This document shows positions 6,130 through 19,230 of a stretch of 31,594 nt of DNA, piece after piece. The position numbers were made by a program, and so were the translations under genes. Position 1 is the stretch's first letter, and the number at the start of each line of letters is the position of its first letter. The stretch comes from a virus (Duplodnaviria > Caudoviricetes): the IMG/VR virus record IMGVR_UViG_3300021080_000004, positions 1-31,594 of that record; one strand, 5' to 3'. A model generated the notes under the pieces. That model worked only from the letters and a program-made list of their open reading frames with translations. It made no database searches and was not told the origin of the DNA.

Positions 6130-6399
6130 GTGAGCCGGCGCGGGTCGGAGATTCGGTGGATGCGGCTGTCGGCCATTCTCGTGTCGGTCGAACGGTCGAT
6201 GGAGGCGGCGTCGCGGCTCGATGCCCACGCGTCGGTGTGTCCGGCCATCGGGGACGACCACGAGGGGCTGCTCGATTTCAATGCGCGACTGACGTTCCTC
6301 GAGCAGCGGATTGATCGCGAACTCGACGTGCTGACGGCGGAGGGCTTGCGCGCCGACTTGGCGGAGAAACAACTCGCGATGACCAAGGGAGCGGCATGA
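6130..6399 (+). CDS. hypothetical protein
   Basis: 89 aa, GTG start, ATGA overlap with the next gene. Confidence 0.55.
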   Translation: MSRRGSEIRWMRLSAILVSVERSMEAASRLDAHASVCPAIGDDHEGLLDFNARLTFLEQRIDRELDVLTAEGLRADLAEKQLAMTKGAA

Positions 6400-6584
6400 C
6401 GGACACGCCGTGGATTTCGATCATGCGGGCGTGCGAGGTGGCCGGCGTCTCGCGTCGCACGATTTACAACTGGCTGGCGAGTGGGAAGATCGAATACGTG
6501 CGGACCGCAGGCGGAGCCGTGCGGATTGATCCTGCGACGCTCTTTCGGCCGCCTGAGCAACCACGGGAATGGAGTCCGAAATGA
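6396..6584 (+). CDS. excisionase/MerR-like HTH (HTH_17-type) DNA-binding protein
   Basis: ISIMRACEVAGVSRRTIYNWLASGKIEYVRTAGGAVRI. Confidence 0.85.
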   Translation: MTDTPWISIMRACEVAGVSRRTIYNWLASGKIEYVRTAGGAVRIDPATLFRPPEQPREWSPK

Positions 6585-7077: not shown

Positions 7078-7254
7078 ATGAAGGCCCCGCTCCCGATCTG
7101 CCCGTTCTGTTTTCAACGCGGGCGACACGCCTCGGCGCGGGAGTGTCTGAACGCCCTGACGCGTGACGTCAGGCGTCCGTATGAGCGCAGCCGACGCGCC
7201 CACGCCCGCGCCGCCCAACGCGCCGCGAAGCTGAAAGGAGACCTGCAGCCATGA
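7078..7254 (+). CDS. small Zn-knuckle-like protein (not in ORF track)
   Basis: 58 aa MKAPLPICPFCFQRGRHASARECL... with C-x2-C-x5-H-x5-C; its stop overlaps the next ATG. Confidence 0.5.
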   Translation: MKAPLPICPFCFQRGRHASARECLNALTRDVRRPYERSRRAHARAAQRAAKLKGDLQP

Positions 7255-7664
7255 TGACGCGACGGGGATTCCTCGGACGGATTGCCGCCGGCGTGGCGGC
7301 GGCCGCGGTGGCCGGGACGGAGTTCGACCTCGAGCGGGCGCTCTGGGTGCCGGGGGCGAAGACGATTTTCCTACCAGAGCCGGTCGTGGCGCCGACGCCC
7401 GCGATGATCGCGGCCATCACGGCCCCGAATCCGTCGCTGTTCGGTGGGCACGTGTGGACGCTGACCAACCTGAATGGCGAGTACGACTTTGATCATAAGT
7501 GGCACCTGATCGGTGGTCGGCGCTGCGGGAAGGTGCTGACGCAAGAACAACTCGAAGACGCACAGGTCGCGTTGTTCCCTGGAGTGCCGGATTCGTTCTT
7601 CGCCCAGCGCCTCGACATCAGGCGCACTGAGCCCGGCACGTACTACGGACGAAGGAGGGGCTGA
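7251..7664 (+). CDS. twin-arginine (Tat) signal-containing protein
   Basis: TRRGFLG followed by hydrophobic IAAGVAAAAVA; AAAGGAG RBS; coupled to tatA by TGATG. Confidence 0.75.
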   Translation: MMTRRGFLGRIAAGVAAAAVAGTEFDLERALWVPGAKTIFLPEPVVAPTPAMIAAITAPNPSLFGGHVWTLTNLNGEYDFDHKWHLIGGRRCGKVLTQEQLEDAQVALFPGVPDSFFAQRLDIRRTEPGTYYGRRRG

Positions 7665-7846
7665 TGTTCGGACCACTCGGACTCCCAGAGCTGTGCATCA
7701 TCGCAGCGGTCGCGCTCCTGATCTTCGGGCCGCGCCAGCTCCCGAAGATGGGCAAAGCGCTCGGCGAGACGATCCGCGAAGTGCGCGGCGTCGCGAAAGA
7801 ACTCCATGGAGAGGATGACGATGACGTCAGACAGCAAGGTCATTGA
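7664..7846 (+). CDS. tatA: twin-arginine translocase TatA/TatE family subunit
   Basis: MFGPLGLPELCIIAAVALLIFGPRQLPKMGKALGETIREVR: TM helix, FG hinge, amphipathic helix, acidic tail; AAGGAGG RBS. Confidence 0.9.
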   Translation: MFGPLGLPELCIIAAVALLIFGPRQLPKMGKALGETIREVRGVAKELHGEDDDDVRQQGH

Positions 7847-10891: not shown

Positions 10892-11234
10892 GCCGGCACT
10901 GGGCTCCCCGGCGCATCTCACCGAGCTCGCCGTCCTCGAGACGTTCCGGACCGTCGTCACCGACCGGCTGCTGATGCTCCTGGTGATCGCGAATGGCCCG
11001 TTCCTCTGGCGGCAGCGCTTTCTCCGGAACCTCGCCGGCCACACCGTGAACGACGACATGGCGGACCAGATGTTCGCCTACTTCCTGCAGAAGTACGGCG
11101 GAACGGCGGAGGAAGCCCGCAAGGAGCTCGACCTCGAACTCGAGGTGATGGAGCTGAACCGGCGCGAGAAGCGACGGCTGGCGGACGAGGCGGACGACTG
11201 GAACGCGACGTCGGCGGGGGACCGCGTTCACTGA
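10881..11234 (+). CDS. hypothetical protein
   Basis: MPFKPALGS..., GGAG RBS, strong GC3 bias, TGATG coupling to portal. Confidence 0.7.
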   Translation: MPFKPALGSPAHLTELAVLETFRTVVTDRLLMLLVIANGPFLWRQRFLRNLAGHTVNDDMADQMFAYFLQKYGGTAEEARKELDLELEVMELNRREKRRLADEADDWNATSAGDRVH

Positions 11235-13810
11235 TGGGCGTCATCGACGGCATCACGACTCGCCTGTCCCGCGCCGCGCGTGCCCTCGTCACCGACGACG
11301 ACGACGCCGTCGAGACGCCGGAGCAGAAGGACACCAAGGCTGACATCACCCGGAAGCGGAAGCTCCTCGAGCGCTCGCTCGACCGGTTCAAGCTCGCGGC
11401 CGAGGCGGAAAACGAGGGCCGCCGCCTCGAAATCGACGACCTGAAGTTCGACGCCGGCGAACAGTGGCCCGACGACATCAAGAGCGAGCGCGCCGGGAAA
11501 GCCGGCCCCGGCCTGCTCGGGGTGCCCGCTCGGCCGTGCCTCACGATCAACAAGCTCGATCAACCCATCCTCCAGCTCACCAACACCCAGCGCGCGGCGC
11601 ACCTCGCCATCCAAATCAGCCCGAAGGGCGGCGGCGCGACGAAAGAGACCGCCGAGACGCTGCAGGGCCTCATTCGGAACATCGAGGTCGAGAGCCGCGC
11701 GCAGATCGCCCGCGGCTGGGCGTTCGAGCGCGCCGTCAAGTGCGGCCGCGGCTGGTACCGCATCGTCAAGACCTACGCGAACGACGGCGACTTCGACCAG
11801 GACCTGCAGATCAAACGCATCCTGAACCAGGCGTCGGTCTATGCCGACCCGTTCGCCATCGAGCCGGACTGGTCCGACGGCGAGTGGCTGTTCGATGTCG
11901 TCGATCTGCCCGCGGAGCGCTTCGCGCGGATGTTTCCGCGGTCGATCCTCACGCAGTCCACCGAGTCGGAGCTCTCGAGCATCGGGGACACGGCCCCCGA
12001 CTGGATCGGCGGCGACAAGACGAGCCGCACCTTCCGCGTCGCCGAGCACTACTACGTCGAGACCGAGACCAAGACGCTCGTGCAGCTCGGGACGGCCGCC
12101 GGCGCAATCGGGCCCCCGGTCCTCAAAGACGATCTGCCCACGACGCTGCCGCCCGGCCTCGCCATCATCCAAGAGCGGGACTACGACAAGAAGACCGTTC
12201 ACTACTGCCAGCTCTCCGCGGCGGAAATCCTCAAGGAGACCGTATGGGAAGGGCGGTACATCCCCTACATCCCCGTCATCGGCAAGGAATACAACATCGA
12301 CGGGAAGCGGACGTTTGCCGGCATCGTCCGCGGGGCGAAGGACGCGCAGCGCTCCTACAACGTGATGCGCTCCGCACAGGTCGAGGCCGTCGGGCTCGCG
12401 CCGAAGTCCCCGTGGGTGATGGCCGAGGGCCAGGACGAGGGCTTCGAGACGATGTGGAAGCTCGCGAACGTGCGCAACTTCTCCAGTCTCAAGTACAAGG
12501 CTATCTCGATTGGCGGCGCGGCGGTGCCGCCCCCGCAGCGTAACGTCGTCGAGCCCGCCATCCAGGCGATCACCTTGGCCGCGCACGAAGCGGACATGGA
12601 CATCAAGGCGACGACGAACACGTTCGACCCGTCGCTCGGCAACATCGACCCGCGCGCACGCAGCGGGAAAGCCATCCAGGCGCTGCAGAAGCAGAGCGAG
12701 CAGGGTAACAGCAACTTCATCGACAACCTCGGGACCATCTCGATGGTGCACGAGGGCCGCGTCCTGCTCGACCTCATCCCCTACGTCTACGACCGCGAAC
12801 AGCGCGTCGTGCAGCTCCTCGGGCTCGACGACGAGCCGCAGCACGTCATGCTCAACGCCCCGTTCGTGCCAGGGGAGAACGGCGCGCCGCTCGCGATGAT
12901 GAAAGGGCCTGACGGCGCCTACGCCATGCCCGCGGGCGCACCGGGCCCGCCGGCGGGTGGGCCTCAGCCCAAACCGAAGCATTTCGACCTGAAGCAGGGG
13001 CAGTACGGCGTCGTCGTCGCGGTCGGCAAATCGTTCTCGACCCGCCGCGAAGAGACCGTGACGGCCGTCGGAGAGCTCATCATCGCCGCCCCGCAGCTCG
13101 CCCCGCTCATCGCGGACCTCTGGGTCGCGCAGATGGACTTCCCGCAGGCGCGTCAGATGGCCGACCGGCTCCGGAAAGCGCTCCCGCCGGGAATGGCCGA
13201 CGAGACCGACGGCCCCGACCCGAGGGTGCTCGAGCAGAAGGTGCAGTCCATGACCATGCAACTGCAGATGGCCATGACGGACCTCGCGGAGAAGACGCGG
13301 CTGCTCGACAACGAGCGCGAGAAGCTCGCGTCGAACGAGCGCATGAAGGCGGCGGAGATCGAATCGAAGGAACGCATCGTCATCCACCAGGTCGAAGCGC
13401 AGCTCCTGGCGGTCCAAGCCAAGATCGACGCGGCCCGCGCCGACGCCACGATCACCGCCGAATTGAACGCCGCGCAACAGGAACTTGATTTGCTCCACCA
13501 ACGCGTGCTTCAGCACACTGGACAGGCGCACGAGGCCGGGATGCAGGCGATGGGCGCGGTCCACGATCAGCAGGCGGCGGTCGGCGAACAGCAGGCGGAT
13601 GCGGCGCTGGCGGCGCAACAGGCGGGTCACGACTCAGCCTCGATGGCGCAGCAGGCCGGGCACGACGCGCAGGCGACCGACCAGCAGGCGGCACACGATG
13701 CGGCCGCGACCGATCAGCAGGCAGGACACGCGGCCGACGCGCAGCAGCGGCAGGCAAAGATTGACGCGGCGGCCGCGAAGGCCGCACCGAAACCCACGGG
13801 AGGGCCGTAG
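11234..13810 (+). CDS. portal protein, P22 gp1-like
   Basis: GEQWP, RPCLTINKL, GRGWYRI, YIPYIPVIG, GIVR.AKDAQR.YN, SGKAI motifs and a long C-terminal helical barrel; position after terminase. Confidence 0.92.
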   Translation: MGVIDGITTRLSRAARALVTDDDDAVETPEQKDTKADITRKRKLLERSLDRFKLAAEAENEGRRLEIDDLKFDAGEQWPDDIKSERAGKAGPGLLGVPARPCLTINKLDQPILQLTNTQRAAHLAIQISPKGGGATKETAETLQGLIRNIEVESRAQIARGWAFERAVKCGRGWYRIVKTYANDGDFDQDLQIKRILNQASVYADPFAIEPDWSDGEWLFDVVDLPAERFARMFPRSILTQSTESELSSIGDTAPDWIGGDKTSRTFRVAEHYYVETETKTLVQLGTAAGAIGPPVLKDDLPTTLPPGLAIIQERDYDKKTVHYCQLSAAEILKETVWEGRYIPYIPVIGKEYNIDGKRTFAGIVRGAKDAQRSYNVMRSAQVEAVGLAPKSPWVMAEGQDEGFETMWKLANVRNFSSLKYKAISIGGAAVPPPQRNVVEPAIQAITLAAHEADMDIKATTNTFDPSLGNIDPRARSGKAIQALQKQSEQGNSNFIDNLGTISMVHEGRVLLDLIPYVYDREQRVVQLLGLDDEPQHVMLNAPFVPGENGAPLAMMKGPDGAYAMPAGAPGPPAGGPQPKPKHFDLKQGQYGVVVAVGKSFSTRREETVTAVGELIIAAPQLAPLIADLWVAQMDFPQARQMADRLRKALPPGMADETDGPDPRVLEQKVQSMTMQLQMAMTDLAEKTRLLDNEREKLASNERMKAAEIESKERIVIHQVEAQLLAVQAKIDAARADATITAELNAAQQELDLLHQRVLQHTGQAHEAGMQAMGAVHDQQAAVGEQQADAALAAQQAGHDSASMAQQAGHDAQATDQQAAHDAAATDQQAGHAADAQQRQAKIDAAAAKAAPKPTGGP
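13616..13747 (+). repeat. 33-bp (11-aa) tandem repeat in portal C-terminus
   Basis: QQAGHDSASMA / QQAGHDAQATD / QQAAHDAAATD / QQAGHAADAQQ. Confidence 0.8.
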
Positions 13811-13855
13811 GTTGGTTTCGCGATTGCATCGTGGTCTGGTCATTGGAGGCCAGTG

Positions 13856-14383
13856 ATGTCGAGTAAACCCAAAACGCCGCTACGAGCGATGACCGTGGAG
13901 GAGGCTGCCTACATAGCAGGTTTCTTCGACGGCGAGGGTTGTCTCACGATGCGCCGATCGAATCGTCATTCCCGCGGTAAAGCAGGCTCCGGCGTGGCGT
14001 CGGTTCACTATCGACTCGCGCTGGACTTTGCGAATCGTCATCTTGGTGTTCTCCGCTGGATTCAACAGTTCACCGGAGGAGCGATCTATTCGAAATATGG
14101 GCCCGCGAGGTCTTCAAGGTGGGCACCGGCCTTCGCGCTCATCATGTGGAACAAGGCGGACATCGAGCGCCTGTTACGAGCCATTCAGCCGTACGTGAAA
14201 GTAAAAACCGAACAAGTTGCCCTCGGGCTCGACTTTCTTTCTCTTCCGCCAGTCCGCGTGTCGTTTCACGCGCGCGGCAAAACCTGGCCGAGACGGGTGT
14301 CGATTCAGGAAGACCTCGATGTGCGGGAAGAGTACAAGCAGCGGCTGAGCGCCTTTAATCAACGAGGGCACCGTGCCAGCTAA
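13856..14383 (+). CDS. LAGLIDADG homing endonuclease, free-standing
   Basis: EEAAYIAGFFDGEGCL motif, ...IQPYVKVK.EQ; visibly lower GC than flanks; GGAGG RBS. Confidence 0.88.
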   Translation: MSSKPKTPLRAMTVEEAAYIAGFFDGEGCLTMRRSNRHSRGKAGSGVASVHYRLALDFANRHLGVLRWIQQFTGGAIYSKYGPARSSRWAPAFALIMWNKADIERLLRAIQPYVKVKTEQVALGLDFLSLPPVRVSFHARGKTWPRRVSIQEDLDVREEYKQRLSAFNQRGHRAS

Positions 14384-14582
14384 ATCAAAGGCGCAACAGA
14401 GACTCTTTGCTGCCGCCGACCACGGCGCCACGTTCCCGAAGGCGGTGAACCTGCGCCAGTCCCTCAGCCACGCCCAACTCCACGACTTCGCCGCAGGCTC
14501 GATGGCAGGGAAGCCGGAGCGCGTCGCGCACCCGCACCGGAACCTTGGGACATTCCTGCATCCGCCGAAGAGGGGCAAGTAG
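14373..14582 (+). CDS. small basic phage protein (DUF3008-like)
   Basis: MPAKSKAQQR...LS..QLHDFA...KPE pattern. Confidence 0.65.
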   Translation: MPAKSKAQQRLFAAADHGATFPKAVNLRQSLSHAQLHDFAAGSMAGKPERVAHPHRNLGTFLHPPKRGK

Positions 14583-14872
14583 TGCTGTCGCGCCGCACGT
14601 TCTTCGGCAGCCTGCTCGCGCCGCTCGTGGCGCGTTTCCTGCCGGCACCCGCCGCGCCGCCGTCGGTCGCGTTCCATCCCGACGCGTTCTCGCTCGCGTT
14701 CCCGCAGATTCCCGAGCAGTACCGCACCGGCGGGATGAGCGTGCCGGTCCGCTTCGACGTGCTCTACGGCTGGGGGAGGGTGCGGCCGGAGATGGCGTGT
14801 CGCATCAGTGGCGGGACCGGCTGGGCCGATCCGTGCGTCGTGACGTCGGCCCAAATGAACAACCGGCGATGA
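14582..14872 (+). CDS. Tat-signal protein containing capsid-protein-like motifs
   Basis: SRRTFF Tat motif; RFDVLYGWGRVRPEMACRI aligns with coat C-terminus RLDVLYGYAALRPELAVRI (12/19 identical). Confidence 0.7.
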   Translation: MLSRRTFFGSLLAPLVARFLPAPAAPPSVAFHPDAFSLAFPQIPEQYRTGGMSVPVRFDVLYGWGRVRPEMACRISGGTGWADPCVVTSAQMNNRR

Positions 14873-15099
14873 CGAAGCACTTCTGCGACCGCTGCGGCAA
14901 CCAGCTCGGGGAGGATTGCGTGGCCGTCTTCTCGGTGAATCCGTGGCCGTCGGGGATTCGCTACGACGCTGCCAGGGATCGCACCGTGTTGTCCGCCGCC
15001 CGCGATGCGGAGGGGGGCGTCAAGGAACTCTGTTTCGTGTGCGCGTCGGGGCTCGGGGGGTACTTGAAGGCGCAACCGAGGAGCGCCGTACTGACATAG
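14869..15099 (+). CDS. small Zn-ribbon protein
   Basis: MTKHFCDRCG...ELCFVC; ATGA overlap. Confidence 0.7.
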   Translation: MTKHFCDRCGNQLGEDCVAVFSVNPWPSGIRYDAARDRTVLSAARDAEGGVKELCFVCASGLGGYLKAQPRSAVLT

Positions 15100-15178
15100 A
15101 CCACACATTGCACGGGTCACTAGCGCGCGAGTAATTACCGCGCGCGAACGTCGCCGCCCAGCGACACGTGATTCGGAC

Positions 15179-15273
15179 AGGGCTGATCCAAGCGAAGAGG
15201 GCCGCTTGATCGATCGCGCGATATCTGCGCGGCAGGTCAAGCGGCCCTTTTCGCGTTTCAGTCCTCATTTTTT
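15179..15273 (+). promoter_or_regulatory. long leader hairpin upstream of the scaffold/capsid genes
   Basis: GCGAAGAGGGCCGCTTGA (15192-15209) pairs with TCAAGCGGCCCTTTTCGC (15237-15254); outer AGGGCTGA/TCAGTCCT; followed by a T run. Confidence 0.6.
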
Positions 15274-15321
15274 CGACGGGCCGTTTCACGCGCACGCAGC
15301 GCGCGCCGCCAGGGGTTGAGC

Positions 15322-16365
15322 ATGTCTGAACCAGTCAGCGTCACGGAAGGCGACCTCACGATCACGTCGACCACGTCGACGGAGGCGCAGATCCGCGAGT
15401 CGCTCAAGCCGACCCTGAAGGAAGAGGCGGCCGCGGCCGCGAAGGTCCCGGCGGAGCCGCCAGTCACCGAAACCCCCGACGAGAAGCCCGACCTCTCTGA
15501 GGCCGGTCGTACGCTCGCCGCCGGCAAGAAGGGCACCGCCGCCACCCGCAAGGACCAGATCCAAGCCGAGATCAACGCGCTTGTGAAGCAGAAGGGCGAC
15601 ACCGTGCGCGAGCACGACGCCTTGGTCGCGCAGCGCGATGCGCTGAAGCGCGAACTCGACGAGCTCGCCGCGAAGAAGCCCGCCGCCGACGTGAAGCCCG
15701 TGGCCGAACCTCCAGTCGCCGCGGCCGCCGCCGCTGCGACCGCCAAACCGAAGCTCGCGGACTTCGATGACATGGACGCCTGGTCTGACGCCGTCGTCGA
15801 CTGGACGAAAGCCGAACTCAAACGCGAACACCTCGAGGCCGCCGCTCAGCAGACCGCTGCCGAGCAGGCGGCTCGTGCCGCTGCGGACAAGAAGACCGTC
15901 GAGGACAACGACACCCGCGCCGCGCAGGCCCTCTTCAAGGAACACCAGACGCGCATCGAAGAAGCCAAAGCGCAGCACGCCGATTTTGACGAGGGCCTGC
16001 GCAGCGTCGACCACCTCGCCCTCACGCCCGCCATGAACTACGAAATCGTCCACTCCGAGCTCGGGGGCGAGATCGCCTACTACCTCGGCCAGCACCACGA
16101 CGAGTTCGCCGCCATCGCTGCGCTCCCGACGCCGGACGCGCAACGCAAAGCCATGAACAAGCTCGAAGCGCGGATTGAGGCTGCTCGTGTTCCTGCCAGC
16201 GGCCCGGCCTCTCCCGCTCGACCCATCACCCGAACCGCTCCACCAGTGAAGCCGCTGGGCGGTTCAGGCAACGCCTCTCCCGACACTGATCCCGCAGACA
16301 TCCCGTTCGGGCCGGACTACGTCCGGCGCATGAACGCGCGTGAACGCGAGCTCCAACGTCGCTGA
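15322..16365 (+). CDS. capsid scaffolding protein
   Basis: Ala/Glu-rich coiled coil, PKLADFDD, IAYYLGQH, ITRTAPPVKPL; immediately upstream of the coat gene. Confidence 0.8.
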   Translation: MSEPVSVTEGDLTITSTTSTEAQIRESLKPTLKEEAAAAAKVPAEPPVTETPDEKPDLSEAGRTLAAGKKGTAATRKDQIQAEINALVKQKGDTVREHDALVAQRDALKRELDELAAKKPAADVKPVAEPPVAAAAAAATAKPKLADFDDMDAWSDAVVDWTKAELKREHLEAAAQQTAAEQAARAAADKKTVEDNDTRAAQALFKEHQTRIEEAKAQHADFDEGLRSVDHLALTPAMNYEIVHSELGGEIAYYLGQHHDEFAAIAALPTPDAQRKAMNKLEARIEAARVPASGPASPARPITRTAPPVKPLGGSGNASPDTDPADIPFGPDYVRRMNARERELQRR

Positions 16366-16385: not shown

Positions 16386-17612
16386 ATGCCTAATTCCATC
16401 GTGACCCCGAGTTGGGTCACTAAAGAAGTCGCCCGAATCCTCGTCAACGAGCTCCACTTCGCGAACACGATCAACCGCGACTACGACGACTCCTACGTCG
16501 TCGCCGGCGCGAAGGTCGGCTACACCGTCTCGGCCCGTCTGCCACAGCGCTACGTCGTCAACAAGGGCCAGGCGCTGAACCCGCAAGCGGTCAGCGACCA
16601 GGTTGTGCCGATCACCCTCACCGACCAGGCCAACATCGGGATCGAGTTCTCGACCGCCTCGTTGACGATGGAGATCGACAACTACCGCGAGCGGTACATC
16701 AGACCCGCGGTCGCGGCGATTATCAACCAGATCGACTTCGACGGCCTCACGCGCATGACGCCGCTGGTCGCACAGTCCGTCGGCGTACCCGGCGTCGTCC
16801 CGAACCTCAACCTCACGTACCTGCAAGCAGGCGTGAAGCTCTCCAATGCGTCGGTCCCGATGGACGGCCGCATCGGGATGCTCAACGCGATGATGCAGGC
16901 GACGCTGGTCAACGCCAACGCCGCCGTCTTCAATCCCGCCGCGCAGATCAGTGAGCAGTACCGGTCCGGTCAGTTCGGCGCGCAGGCGCTGGGCGTCAGC
17001 CGCTGGTACATGGACCAGAACGTCTACACGCACACCGTCGGTCCGCTCGGCGGGACCCCGACCGTCAACGGTGCGAACCAGGTCGGCGCCTCGATCATCA
17101 GCCAGGCCTGGACCGCTGCGGCGGCCAACCGGCTGAAGCGCGGGGACGTGATTCAGTTCGCGGGCGTTTTCGGCGTGAATCCGCAGAACCGGGTCTCGAC
17201 CGGGCAACTGCAGGACTTCGTGGTCACCGCGGACGTGAGCTCGGACGGCGCCGGCGCGGCGACCATTCCGATCTCGCCCGCGATCATCACCGCGGGCGCG
17301 TATCAGACCGTGACGGTGTCGCCGGCCTCCGGCGCGGCGATCACGATCTTCGGCAGCGCGTCGGCGTACGCCAGTCTCGCGACTCCACAGGGGCTCATCT
17401 ACAACCCCGACTTCGCGGCGCTCGTCATGGCGGATCTCGATCTGCCGCAGGGCGTGTGGGCCGCGGAGCGGGTGTCGAGCAAGCAGCTCGGCATCTCGGT
17501 GCGGTTCATCAAGGACTACAACATCATGACCGACCAGTCGCCCGCGCGACTGGATGTGTTGTACGGCTACGCGGCCTTGCGGCCGGAGCTCGCCGTTCGG
17601 ATCGCGTCGTAA
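16386..17612 (+). CDS. major capsid protein, P22 gp5-like
   Basis: N.L.F...INRDYD, KVG.TV..RLP, MDQNV..HT.G, I-domain LKRGDVIQFAGV..VNP, RLDVLYG...RPE.AVR. Confidence 0.92.
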   Translation: MPNSIVTPSWVTKEVARILVNELHFANTINRDYDDSYVVAGAKVGYTVSARLPQRYVVNKGQALNPQAVSDQVVPITLTDQANIGIEFSTASLTMEIDNYRERYIRPAVAAIINQIDFDGLTRMTPLVAQSVGVPGVVPNLNLTYLQAGVKLSNASVPMDGRIGMLNAMMQATLVNANAAVFNPAAQISEQYRSGQFGAQALGVSRWYMDQNVYTHTVGPLGGTPTVNGANQVGASIISQAWTAAAANRLKRGDVIQFAGVFGVNPQNRVSTGQLQDFVVTADVSSDGAGAATIPISPAIITAGAYQTVTVSPASGAAITIFGSASAYASLATPQGLIYNPDFAALVMADLDLPQGVWAAERVSSKQLGISVRFIKDYNIMTDQSPARLDVLYGYAALRPELAVRIAS

Positions 17613-17682: not shown

Positions 17683-18411
17683 ATGAAGCGCATCACGACT
17701 CTGCTCCTCGGCCTCCTGGCCGTCTTCGCCCTGGCGATTCCCGCCGGCGCGCAGACCGCCGTCACGCAGACCACCCTCAACGGGGCGGTTGCCGTCGGCG
17801 ACCAGTCCCTCACCCTGACCTCCGCGACCGGCGTTGTGGCGGGCTCGCAACTGTTCGTCGACCGCGAAGCCATCCAGGTCGTGTCAATCAGCGGCACCCT
17901 CGCCCAGGTTCGACGCGGCGCGGACGGCACGACGGCTGGCGCGCACGCCACGTTGTCGATCATCTACGCCGGCCCGACCGCCGGCGTCATCGGCACGCCC
18001 TACGTCGCGTCTGACCCGGCGCTTGGAACCTGCGTCGCGTCGACCGAGGTCTACACCCTCCGCATCAACGTCCGGAACGGGTTCGTGTGGAAGTGCATCA
18101 CGAGCCAGTGGGCCGTCGTCTCGCAGCCGTACCCGTCGCCCTCGATTGCTGGTCCCGTGCTGGGCACCGCCATCGCGTCGGCGACGACGATCGCGCCCGT
18201 GTCGTACGTCACGCATGTGACAGGCACTGTCAACCCGGTCACCACGATCACCGTTCCCGCCGGCTGCGCGCTGACCTGTCAGATCGTGCTGATTCCGGAT
18301 GGCGCGTTCGTCACAAGTGCTGCGGGCAACATCTCGCTGGCCACGACCGCCGTGGTCAACAAGGCGTTGATCATGACCTGGGACGGAAGTAAATGGAACC
18401 CGAGCTACTAG
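17683..18411 (+). CDS. putative virion decoration/structural protein with Sec-type signal peptide
   Basis: MKRITTLLLGLLAVFALAIPAGA|Q; Thr/Ala/Val-rich beta-type composition; first gene after the coat. Confidence 0.7.
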   Translation: MKRITTLLLGLLAVFALAIPAGAQTAVTQTTLNGAVAVGDQSLTLTSATGVVAGSQLFVDREAIQVVSISGTLAQVRRGADGTTAGAHATLSIIYAGPTAGVIGTPYVASDPALGTCVASTEVYTLRINVRNGFVWKCITSQWAVVSQPYPSPSIAGPVLGTAIASATTIAPVSYVTHVTGTVNPVTTITVPAGCALTCQIVLIPDGAFVTSAAGNISLATTAVVNKALIMTWDGSKWNPSY

Positions 18412-18845
18412 CTCGCCTTTGAGTACGTGCGTCGCGGTTTGTGAAGCTTCATGTGCGATTCGCGCGTATGAAGTTCGAGGTTGGACGGATCGTTATTCGC
18501 GGGGTTGCCGTCTCGATGATGAACAATTTCTGTCGACAACAGCGGGCGACCAAGGACCTGCTCCATCACAGCTCGATGGCCGCGCACCCTTCGCCCTTTG
18601 ATGCTTTGCAGAAAATAGCCGTCCGGTCGAAACGAGCCTTGTCCGTTGCGGCGTCGTTCGTCTTTGGTGGGGTCGCCGTACTTCAGCAAGCGGCGATAGT
18701 GGCGACGACACAGACCCTTCGCCGAACCGCGAACATTCGTTTCACCCGAACAGTCATGCACCGAACACGGCTCTGGTTTCACGTGTGTAAATGGCACGGC
18801 CAGAGGATACCAAAGTTGAGCACGAAGTGGAATCCGAGTTACTGA
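18391..18845 (+). repeat. imperfect direct repeat (both copies encode KWNPSY*) flanking the HNH gene
   Basis: aaatggaacccgagctactag (18391-18411) vs aagtggaatccgagttactga (18825-18845); differences are synonymous. Confidence 0.85.
18408..18797 (-). CDS. HNH homing endonuclease
   Basis: CS..DC...AKGLC..HY.R..KYGDP Zn motif; HR.VMEQ.LGRPL...EIVHHRDGN..NN..SNL; lower GC; only credible minus-strand gene; start uncertain (GTG 18797 or 18782). Confidence 0.88.
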   Translation of the reverse strand: MPFTHVKPEPCSVHDCSGETNVRGSAKGLCRRHYRRLLKYGDPTKDERRRNGQGSFRPDGYFLQSIKGRRVRGHRAVMEQVLGRPLLSTEIVHHRDGNPANNDPSNLELHTRESHMKLHKPRRTYSKAS

Positions 18846-18885
18846 CCCGCGCAATTCCGCGCGCCGCTTGAAAGGGATCTGACTC

Positions 18886-19230
18886 ATGGGCATCGTGCCG
18901 CACGTGGCCGGCGAGTATCCGCTCTACATGTACCACCCGACGGAGAAGCCGCAACTCGTCGAGACCAAAGAACGGCGCGCCGAGTTGGGGCATCAGGGCT
19001 GGTCAGAGACCTACATCCAACAGGTGTTTCCGCGGATGTTCTACCGGCTGACGAAGAAGAAGGATGCCGACGGCCAGCCGATCGTCGAGCAGCGCACGGT
19101 CGAGACCGCCGAAGCCGAGAAAGTGCTCGGCCCGGCCTGGCTCGGTGCGCCGCCCGCGGTGGACCTCGACGACGTCGGGTCCGCGCCAGTCGCTCCGCCG
19201 CCCGCGACGAAGCCGCCGAAGGCCGCCTGA
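18886..19230 (+). CDS. hypothetical protein with two internal repeats
   Basis: EYPLYMYH...VETKERRAELG..W and VFPRMFY...VETAEAEKVLG..W. Confidence 0.7.
   Translation: MGIVPHVAGEYPLYMYHPTEKPQLVETKERRAELGHQGWSETYIQQVFPRMFYRLTKKKDADGQPIVEQRTVETAEAEKVLGPAWLGAPPAVDLDDVGSAPVAPPPATKPPKAA

Follow-up and report, generated by a model that had tools for sequence, protein, structure and literature searches.

Short phage proteins that place coat-protein motifs behind a twin-arginine-type leader

Results

The window analysed here is a linear virus record of 31,594 bases (CheckV completeness 81%), whose sequence was also found in freshwater-sediment runs. It carries a P22-like head block composed of small and large terminase, portal, LAGLIDADG, scaffold and coat genes, among which the P22-like portal (11234-13810, PF16510), the head scaffolding protein (15322-16365, phrog_8865) and the phage's own major coat protein (16386-17612) all lie on the plus strand. 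The coat is of the P22/Sf6 type by profile (PF11651, 118 bits), and the top Foldseek matches of its structure model are Sf6, CUS-3 and P22. In the interval between portal and scaffold sits a plus-strand gene (14582-14872) for a 96-residue mini-protein, in which a twin-arginine-type leader is followed by a collage of coat motifs. The preliminary description of this DNA had placed the ORF at these positions, with a protein starting SRRTFF, and had described the gene as intact and translationally coupled on both sides; both statements hold. The stop codon of the upstream ORF (TAG, 14580-14582) overlaps the start of the mini-gene (TAGTG), an ATGA overlap joins it to its 3' neighbour, and a Shine-Dalgarno-like GAGGGG (14570-14575, plus strand) lies 6 nt upstream of the GTG start. 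Its GC3 of 0.90 is the same as that of portal and coat. A metatranscriptome contig matches 14506-15028 without differences, which is no proof of expression since a contig of this kind reveals neither the transcribed strand nor the transcript level, and the sample may have contained DNA.

The coupled upstream neighbour (14373-14582) is a 69-residue ORF with a weak likeness to DUF3008 and to a virion-protein N-terminus, and the downstream one (14869-15099) encodes a 76-residue CxxC..CxxC protein. The LAGLIDADG endonuclease that follows the portal (13856-14383) is free-standing and has a GC3 of 0.63; an HNH endonuclease lies on the minus strand past the coat region (18408-18893). Upstream of the scaffold gene is a 63-nt inverted repeat (15192-15254) with no T-run, and the region 15100-15330 has a folding z of -5.9, making it a possible regulatory RNA or processing site. 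Within the scaffold gene, a long contig from run X1 differs from the window at 15995-16001 by two substitutions and a compensating pair of one-base indels. Elsewhere in the window we noted a HerA-like ATPase gene (561-2297) and a small ORF (6396-6584) that by eye resembles an excisionase-type HTH protein.

Three pieces of the mini-protein resemble coat segments, and the corresponding coat sequences, which serve as their source family, are encoded at 16944-16979, 17394-17426 and 17541-17606 (plus strand). Piece 1 (residues 29-39; 14666-14698, plus strand) holds an FHxDAF motif and aligns to coat 337-347. Piece 2 (residues 42-53; 14705-14740, plus strand) is an apparent out-of-order copy of coat 187-198 that is unconserved across the family described below. 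Piece 3 (residues 55-76; 14744-14809, plus strand), RxDVLYG...RPE..CRI, corresponds to the last two predicted strands of the coat (386-407). The tail that follows (residues 77-96; 14810-14869, plus strand) had no match in the related loci compared.

The likeness is strongest in piece 3, for which 12 of 19 identical residues had been reported: over coat 386-407 we count 13 of 22 identities, 12 of 19 in the core (BLASTP E 9e-8), a score reached by none of 5000 shuffles. The PHROG match of the mini-protein is likewise to a major head protein, at the very end of the profile (phrog_283, E 9.4e-5, positions 359-384 of 385). Six of the 13 residues identical to the own coat are encoded by different codons, suggesting that the likeness is maintained at the protein level. 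The other two pieces fared less evenly. QIPEQYRTG (residues 42-50) shares 7 of 9 residues and 22 of 28 nucleotides with QISEQYRSG of the coat (187-195). When residues 1-53 are shuffled, this score is reached 27 times in 5000. Among 98 aligned coats two match piece 2 at 8 of 12 positions at coat 187-198, as against a maximum of 3 of 12 at the collinear site, and 6 of 1000 shuffles reached an 8/12 match anywhere in 109 coats. The earlier claim that the EQYR segment is out of order relative to the coat is thus moderately supported; the QYRTG motif also occurs in one other family member (P0056). As for AFHPDAFSLA, its proposed likeness to the phage's own coat is not significant (319 of 5000 shuffles reach the score), and what stands is a likeness to the coat family, seen in LAFHRDAFTLA of L001 and in the profile alignment. 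On sequence comparison, then, the pieces are closer to the coat family at large than to the coat of the phage that carries them.

In a profile alignment, hhalign matched the 46-member mini-protein family to a profile of 35 coats at a probability of 99.5% (E 2.4e-22), pieces 1 and 3 being collinear with coat 333-351 and 375-408. The mini-protein reads as two C-terminal coat strands with the middle deleted, plus an apparently displaced piece of coat 187-198. It gave no PF11651 match in Pfam at E<=0.1 and is not a full-length coat by that profile; a Pfam match to PB4_spike (E 0.13) was taken as chance. Its AF2 model, of low confidence (pTM 0.29), contains one helix (residues 4-17), no strands and no visible HK97 fold, with predicted disorder after the leader helix, so that the cargo has no predicted fold.

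A search with phmmer over 1.84 billion protein representatives (E<=0.001) returned 54 matches, 53 of them non-self and all in distinct 50% clusters. Forty-four of the 53 are short proteins (62-157 residues) that have RRx[F/L] within their first 20 residues, and every one of these carries the D-x-x-aromatic-G motif of the coat; the other nine are five coat fragments, one permuted sister protein without RR and three unrelated proteins. The RR pair is therefore kept together with the capsid motif in 44 of 53 homologues, a co-occurrence that is partly built in because the search favours proteins having both parts. Together with the profile match to P22-type coats, these homologues support the core of the preliminary description, a condensed capsid fragment behind a twin-arginine leader. 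An alignment of 46 members (the 44 matches, the query and L092, chosen for RR) has R4, R5 and G63 invariant and F7, R57, D59 and Y62 conserved in at least 90%. The interval between the two C-terminal motifs spans 10-33 residues in 25 of the 26 members scored and 43-46 in all 79 coats scored, so that the motifs persist and the linkers are lost. At the variable position of FHxDA, 22 of 31 scored members have P as against 6 of 88 coats, a search-biased comparison.

We also searched DNA patterns in 210 loci blind to RR. Of 207 motif matches, 202 fall in what appears to be another capsid lineage with a natural 25-residue spacing; the remainder comprise one coat with short spacing, two chance matches and two RR-bearing mini-proteins, one identical to that of the window. 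The only independent mini-protein found in this way, L433, does have RR. Pattern searches of 237 loci added just two members (L123 and L181), and in a search of related loci with the mini-protein the motif ended a full or contig-cut coat in 77 of 80 loci, three being unmatched by the pattern. A word-index search with the single protein recovered only itself (1 of 15 candidates) and with the alignment 13 of 8000 candidates. The ESM Atlas gave no usable match to the mini-protein, the best 20 of 77 GenBank phage records held no mini-protein match, and a second RR-leader ORF of the window had none either. One 367-residue coat ORF (L360:5951-7051) shows an internal deletion like that of the mini-proteins, with 17 residues between FHKDAF and RLDILYG, and may be an assembly error or a natural variant.

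These data bear on one alternative, a decaying coat-gene duplication or a chance likeness. Compared with the own coat, piece 1 falls short of significance and piece 2 attains it only moderately, and no divergent allele of the mini-gene itself was found in the related loci and run contigs searched. The design is nevertheless common to 44 related clusters, the codons of piece 3 differ as described, and the frame, coupling and GC3 are those of an intact gene; we consider this reading largely refuted and highly improbable.

A second twin-arginine-leader ORF of the window (7251-7664, plus strand) represents a sister family marked by WxPG(A/E/Q)KTIFxP. Its members carry different parts of the coat behind the leader, such as the N-arm (L091, L578, L599, L605, L546), the insertion domain (L095-L097, L566) and pieces judged by eye to be spine-helix-like, alone or permuted. 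In P0023, P0056, P0059, L609 and L611 the motifs stand in a changed order or are combined with portal pieces, and P0019 adds a portal piece (E 5e-7 against portal). In L565, a single record, the leader carries the N-terminus of the phage's own non-P22 capsid (phrog_14242; 24 of 56 identical, E 4e-14). A large WxPG subgroup with cargo like the phrog_14242-type N-terminus comprises L550, L557, L565, L573-L576, L580, L597, L603, L606, L607 and L610, the comparison with the carrier's own capsid having been made for L565. Three WxPG ORFs of tatA-bearing records (7251-7664 of the window; L609:9580-10128; L623:1049-1486) appear by eye to have an F-D/N-x-x-W cargo motif in common.

The cargo of the sister genes is under purifying selection. 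In 9 of 12 close pairs dN/dS is 0.08-0.24 (finite non-zero values), while of the other three one has only synonymous change, one only non-synonymous change and one is saturated; these pairs exclude the mini-gene itself, are non-independent and several have dS above 1. Based on our analysis, the gene family is real, selected, apparently undescribed and diverse in uncultured phages. To relate cargo to carrier, we ranked the own coat of nine ORFs among 85 coat C-termini, a tenth being excluded as its own coat is absent from the set. The ranks were 68, 3, 1, 81, 25, 28, 5, 46 and 13, the 68 of the window being biased because the set was largely gathered with the window query. By this measure the cargo follows the capsid family of its carrier and not its exact own coat.

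Cargo and placement together bear on a second alternative, that the pieces bind coat by strand complementation, thereby tethering the phage's own subunits or procapsids to the membrane or tagging them for quality control. What the mini-protein retains corresponds, in the model of the coat, to strands 332-339, 344-349, 384-397 and 403-407, which flank the deleted part, as this reading would have it; these arms presumably pair in the HK97 fold. A predicted complex of residues 25-78 and coat 1-331 scored 0.26 against a mark of 0.32, from which we draw no conclusion. The majority of mapped members are located within or adjoining the terminase-portal-coat block, either immediately ahead of the portal gene or in the stretch from portal to coat, and portal pieces also occur as cargo. 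The cargo, however, tracks the own coat loosely (ranks 1-81 of 85, in a set biased towards query-like coats), most related coat loci have no such gene within their 5-kb flanks, and very different coat parts are used. We regard a coat tether as unlikely.

Placement also has its exceptions, with the mini-genes of G041 on the strand opposite the head genes and the gene of L616 among neck genes. L609 has five consecutive RR-leader ORFs beside tatA (L609:9580-13216), one of which combines portal-like motifs with others of the coat C-terminal, insertion-domain and spine-helix-like kinds.

The leader (residues 1-24; 14582-14653, plus strand) consists of S-RR-TFF, 12 uncharged residues, R18 and A-P-A at 22-24, a possible cleavage site. 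S3-R4-R5-T6-F7-F8 fits the S/T-R-R-x-F-hydrophobic motif, and the leader shares with Tat signal peptides this S/T/N-RR-x-F-hydrophobic motif and a hydrophobic helix, whereas the passenger of usual Tat substrates is a folded enzyme and here a short virion-protein fragment predicted to lack structure. Searching PF10518 and TIGR01409 with the mini-protein, we found no match of its leader to either Tat HMM; 11 and 14 of the 46 family members, respectively, match the two at E<=0.1. The TATFIND rule asks for 13 or more uncharged residues after the RR pair (PMC8047123). In a stretch taken as 22 residues, this number is attained by 37 of 46 members, and the window copy has 12 before R18 and an uncharged run of 15 after it. 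Among the weak PDB matches of the family profile is the chain of 9e04 that represents the CueO signal peptide (E 0.55). Tat targeting is thus likely for the family, and we are less sure of it for the window copy.

In 28 of 46 members an A-x-A comes after the hydrophobic stretch, consistent with a protein that is exported and cleaved so that its capsid-like peptide would serve as a periplasmic or extracellular signal or blocker. Set against this are the 18 members that lack A-x-A there, the fact that we recognised no receptor gene nearby, and the variety of the cargo, which would suit a signal poorly; a released peptide seems to us very unlikely.

The second RR-leader ORF stops where a gene for a short phage-borne TatA of 60 residues starts (7664-7846, plus strand; PF02416, 57.1 bits against a cut-off of 21). 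The closest relatives of this protein are also short (53-71 residues, 58-72% identity), longer ones lying at about 50%, and it belongs to a short-TatA group with IFGP(R/S)QLPK. The co-occurrence of tatA with these mini-proteins, which had been suggested as a check, does exist but is partial: tatA is present in 5 of 49 RR-leader records (from 52 chosen loci) and 0 of 40 coat-bearing controls (the longer 40 of 80 loci; two-sided Fisher p 0.062), in a comparison without host matching in which many records are fragments. None of 13 records at least 90% complete has it; of ten records that carry the C-terminal piece, four do (the window, L433, L578 and L609). We conclude that tatA is weakly linked to RR-leader genes. 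The family member P0019 and the close TatA relative P0066 are both Logan contigs of 3718 bases and possibly the same contig.

A distinct short TatA group in RR-leader phages would fit a further alternative, in which the leader is the active part, occupying host TatBC and, with phage TatA, blocking or reshaping export or membrane integrity, while the coat pieces are filler. The leader is indeed the constant part, and the cargo of many sister ORFs has no recognisable coat likeness, 41 of 48 having no PHROG match at E<=0.01 and the other seven all matching phrog_283. In the window TatA the FK motif is replaced by V-R (positions matched by eye), and in E. coli the F39A change there is dominant negative (PMC13186574). 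Yet F is kept by five of seven phage TatAs, one having M, and filler would hardly show the purifying selection seen in sister pairs or the conservation of R57, D59, Y62 and G63. Unfolded, untranslocated substrates reportedly do not block Tat (PMC13186574). We consider an active leader unlikely, if somewhat less so than a coat tether.

Discussion

What could a selected, shuffled set of virion motifs behind an export-type leader do? We tentatively favour a decoy that is routed by Tat and aimed at host factors recognising capsid motifs, a possible reading that stops short of probable. The mini-protein would be made alongside the head genes, its coat pieces would capture such factors, and the leader would carry the bound factors to or through the Tat translocon and off the real coat, a routing in which phage TatA may help. 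That the pieces bind something is suggested by the selection on their cargo, and cargo without a predicted fold fits short linear baits. Sensors that read the major capsid protein through short motifs are reported, namely Lit and CapRel (10.64898/2026.01.04.697583). Tat lets partners that lack a signal hitchhike on its substrates (PMC8047123), and it turns away unfolded cargo or transports it inefficiently (PMC9251779, PMC13186574), so export of the cargo might need a bound folded partner. The RR genes are also optional and can form arrays, as in L609.

Several observations count against such a decoy. The leader matches no Tat HMM and has 12 uncharged residues before R18, the near-complete records are free of tatA, and the G041 genes lie opposite the head genes. 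The retained pieces, as predicted core strands, are probably buried in the folded coat. Avs7, 8 and 10 are described as wrapping the folded HK97 domain through broad surfaces (10.64898/2026.01.04.697583), and a 55-residue unfolded piece is unlikely to present a surface of that type.

The same features could instead describe dominant-negative pieces aimed at rival phages that share the capsid family, whose head assembly they would poison while removing captured subunits via Tat. Such an activity would be in keeping with cargo that follows the family consensus and not the own coat, and assembly interference by prophages and satellites is known for tails (PMC11364771). The motifs are, however, also conserved in the own coat (13 of 22), and the gene overlaps its head-region neighbours, so that a poison would likely harm the phage's own assembly; we found no sigma-70-type promoter in 13700-15400 that would suggest separate expression. 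Rival poisoning is in our view rather unlikely, more so than a coat tether. The decoy fits better than such a poison, which would hit the own coat, since the family motifs are optional, multi-copy and shuffled near head genes. A bolder form, 'deportation', in which shuffled capsid and portal baits export sensors or rival coat subunits as Tat hitchhikers and phage TatA enlarges the pore supply, is about as doubtful as rival poisoning.

The mini-protein stands apart from the systems that it recalls. Its pieces 1 and 3 are collinear homologues of the P22/Sf6/CUS-3 coat (PF11651, phrog_283, HK97 fold) and piece 2 resembles coat 187-198, but it has 96 residues to the coat's about 410, with an internal deletion, shuffling and an N-terminal RR leader. 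DSAD1 of SPbeta mimics the tail tube protein and blocks DSR2 (PMC10973363); the likeness lies in the proposed principle, a look-alike of a sensed virion protein, and implies no sequence relation. Unlike DSAD1, the mini-protein is a recognisable shuffled coat copy with an export-type leader, and its sensor is hypothetical. The Tai tail-assembly inhibitors of prophages and satellites share their principle with the poisoning of rivals but act on tails, and a fragment-of-target or Tat-leader design is not described for them in the accessible portion of that source (PMC11364771). We did not find the design in the literature on Tat, capsid fragments or mimics in anti-defence, including the consulted part of a 2026 review (PMC13728456), within a scope lying mostly outside subscription journals. 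In that literature, phages are not known to assemble proteins from conserved capsid motifs joined to a Tat-type leader, nor to combine such proteins with a TatA of their own.

Whichever reading is right, these phages hold a gene family, selected and shuffled, whose clear design still wants an explanation. If the pieces bind coat, they would be natural capsid-assembly modulators. If they are decoys, they would amount to a list of the capsid and portal motifs sensed by bacteria of soil and sediment, each a testable short peptide. Were 'deportation' true, it would constitute a new class of counter-defence, and the collection of baits would be a map of the virion motifs that bacteria sense.
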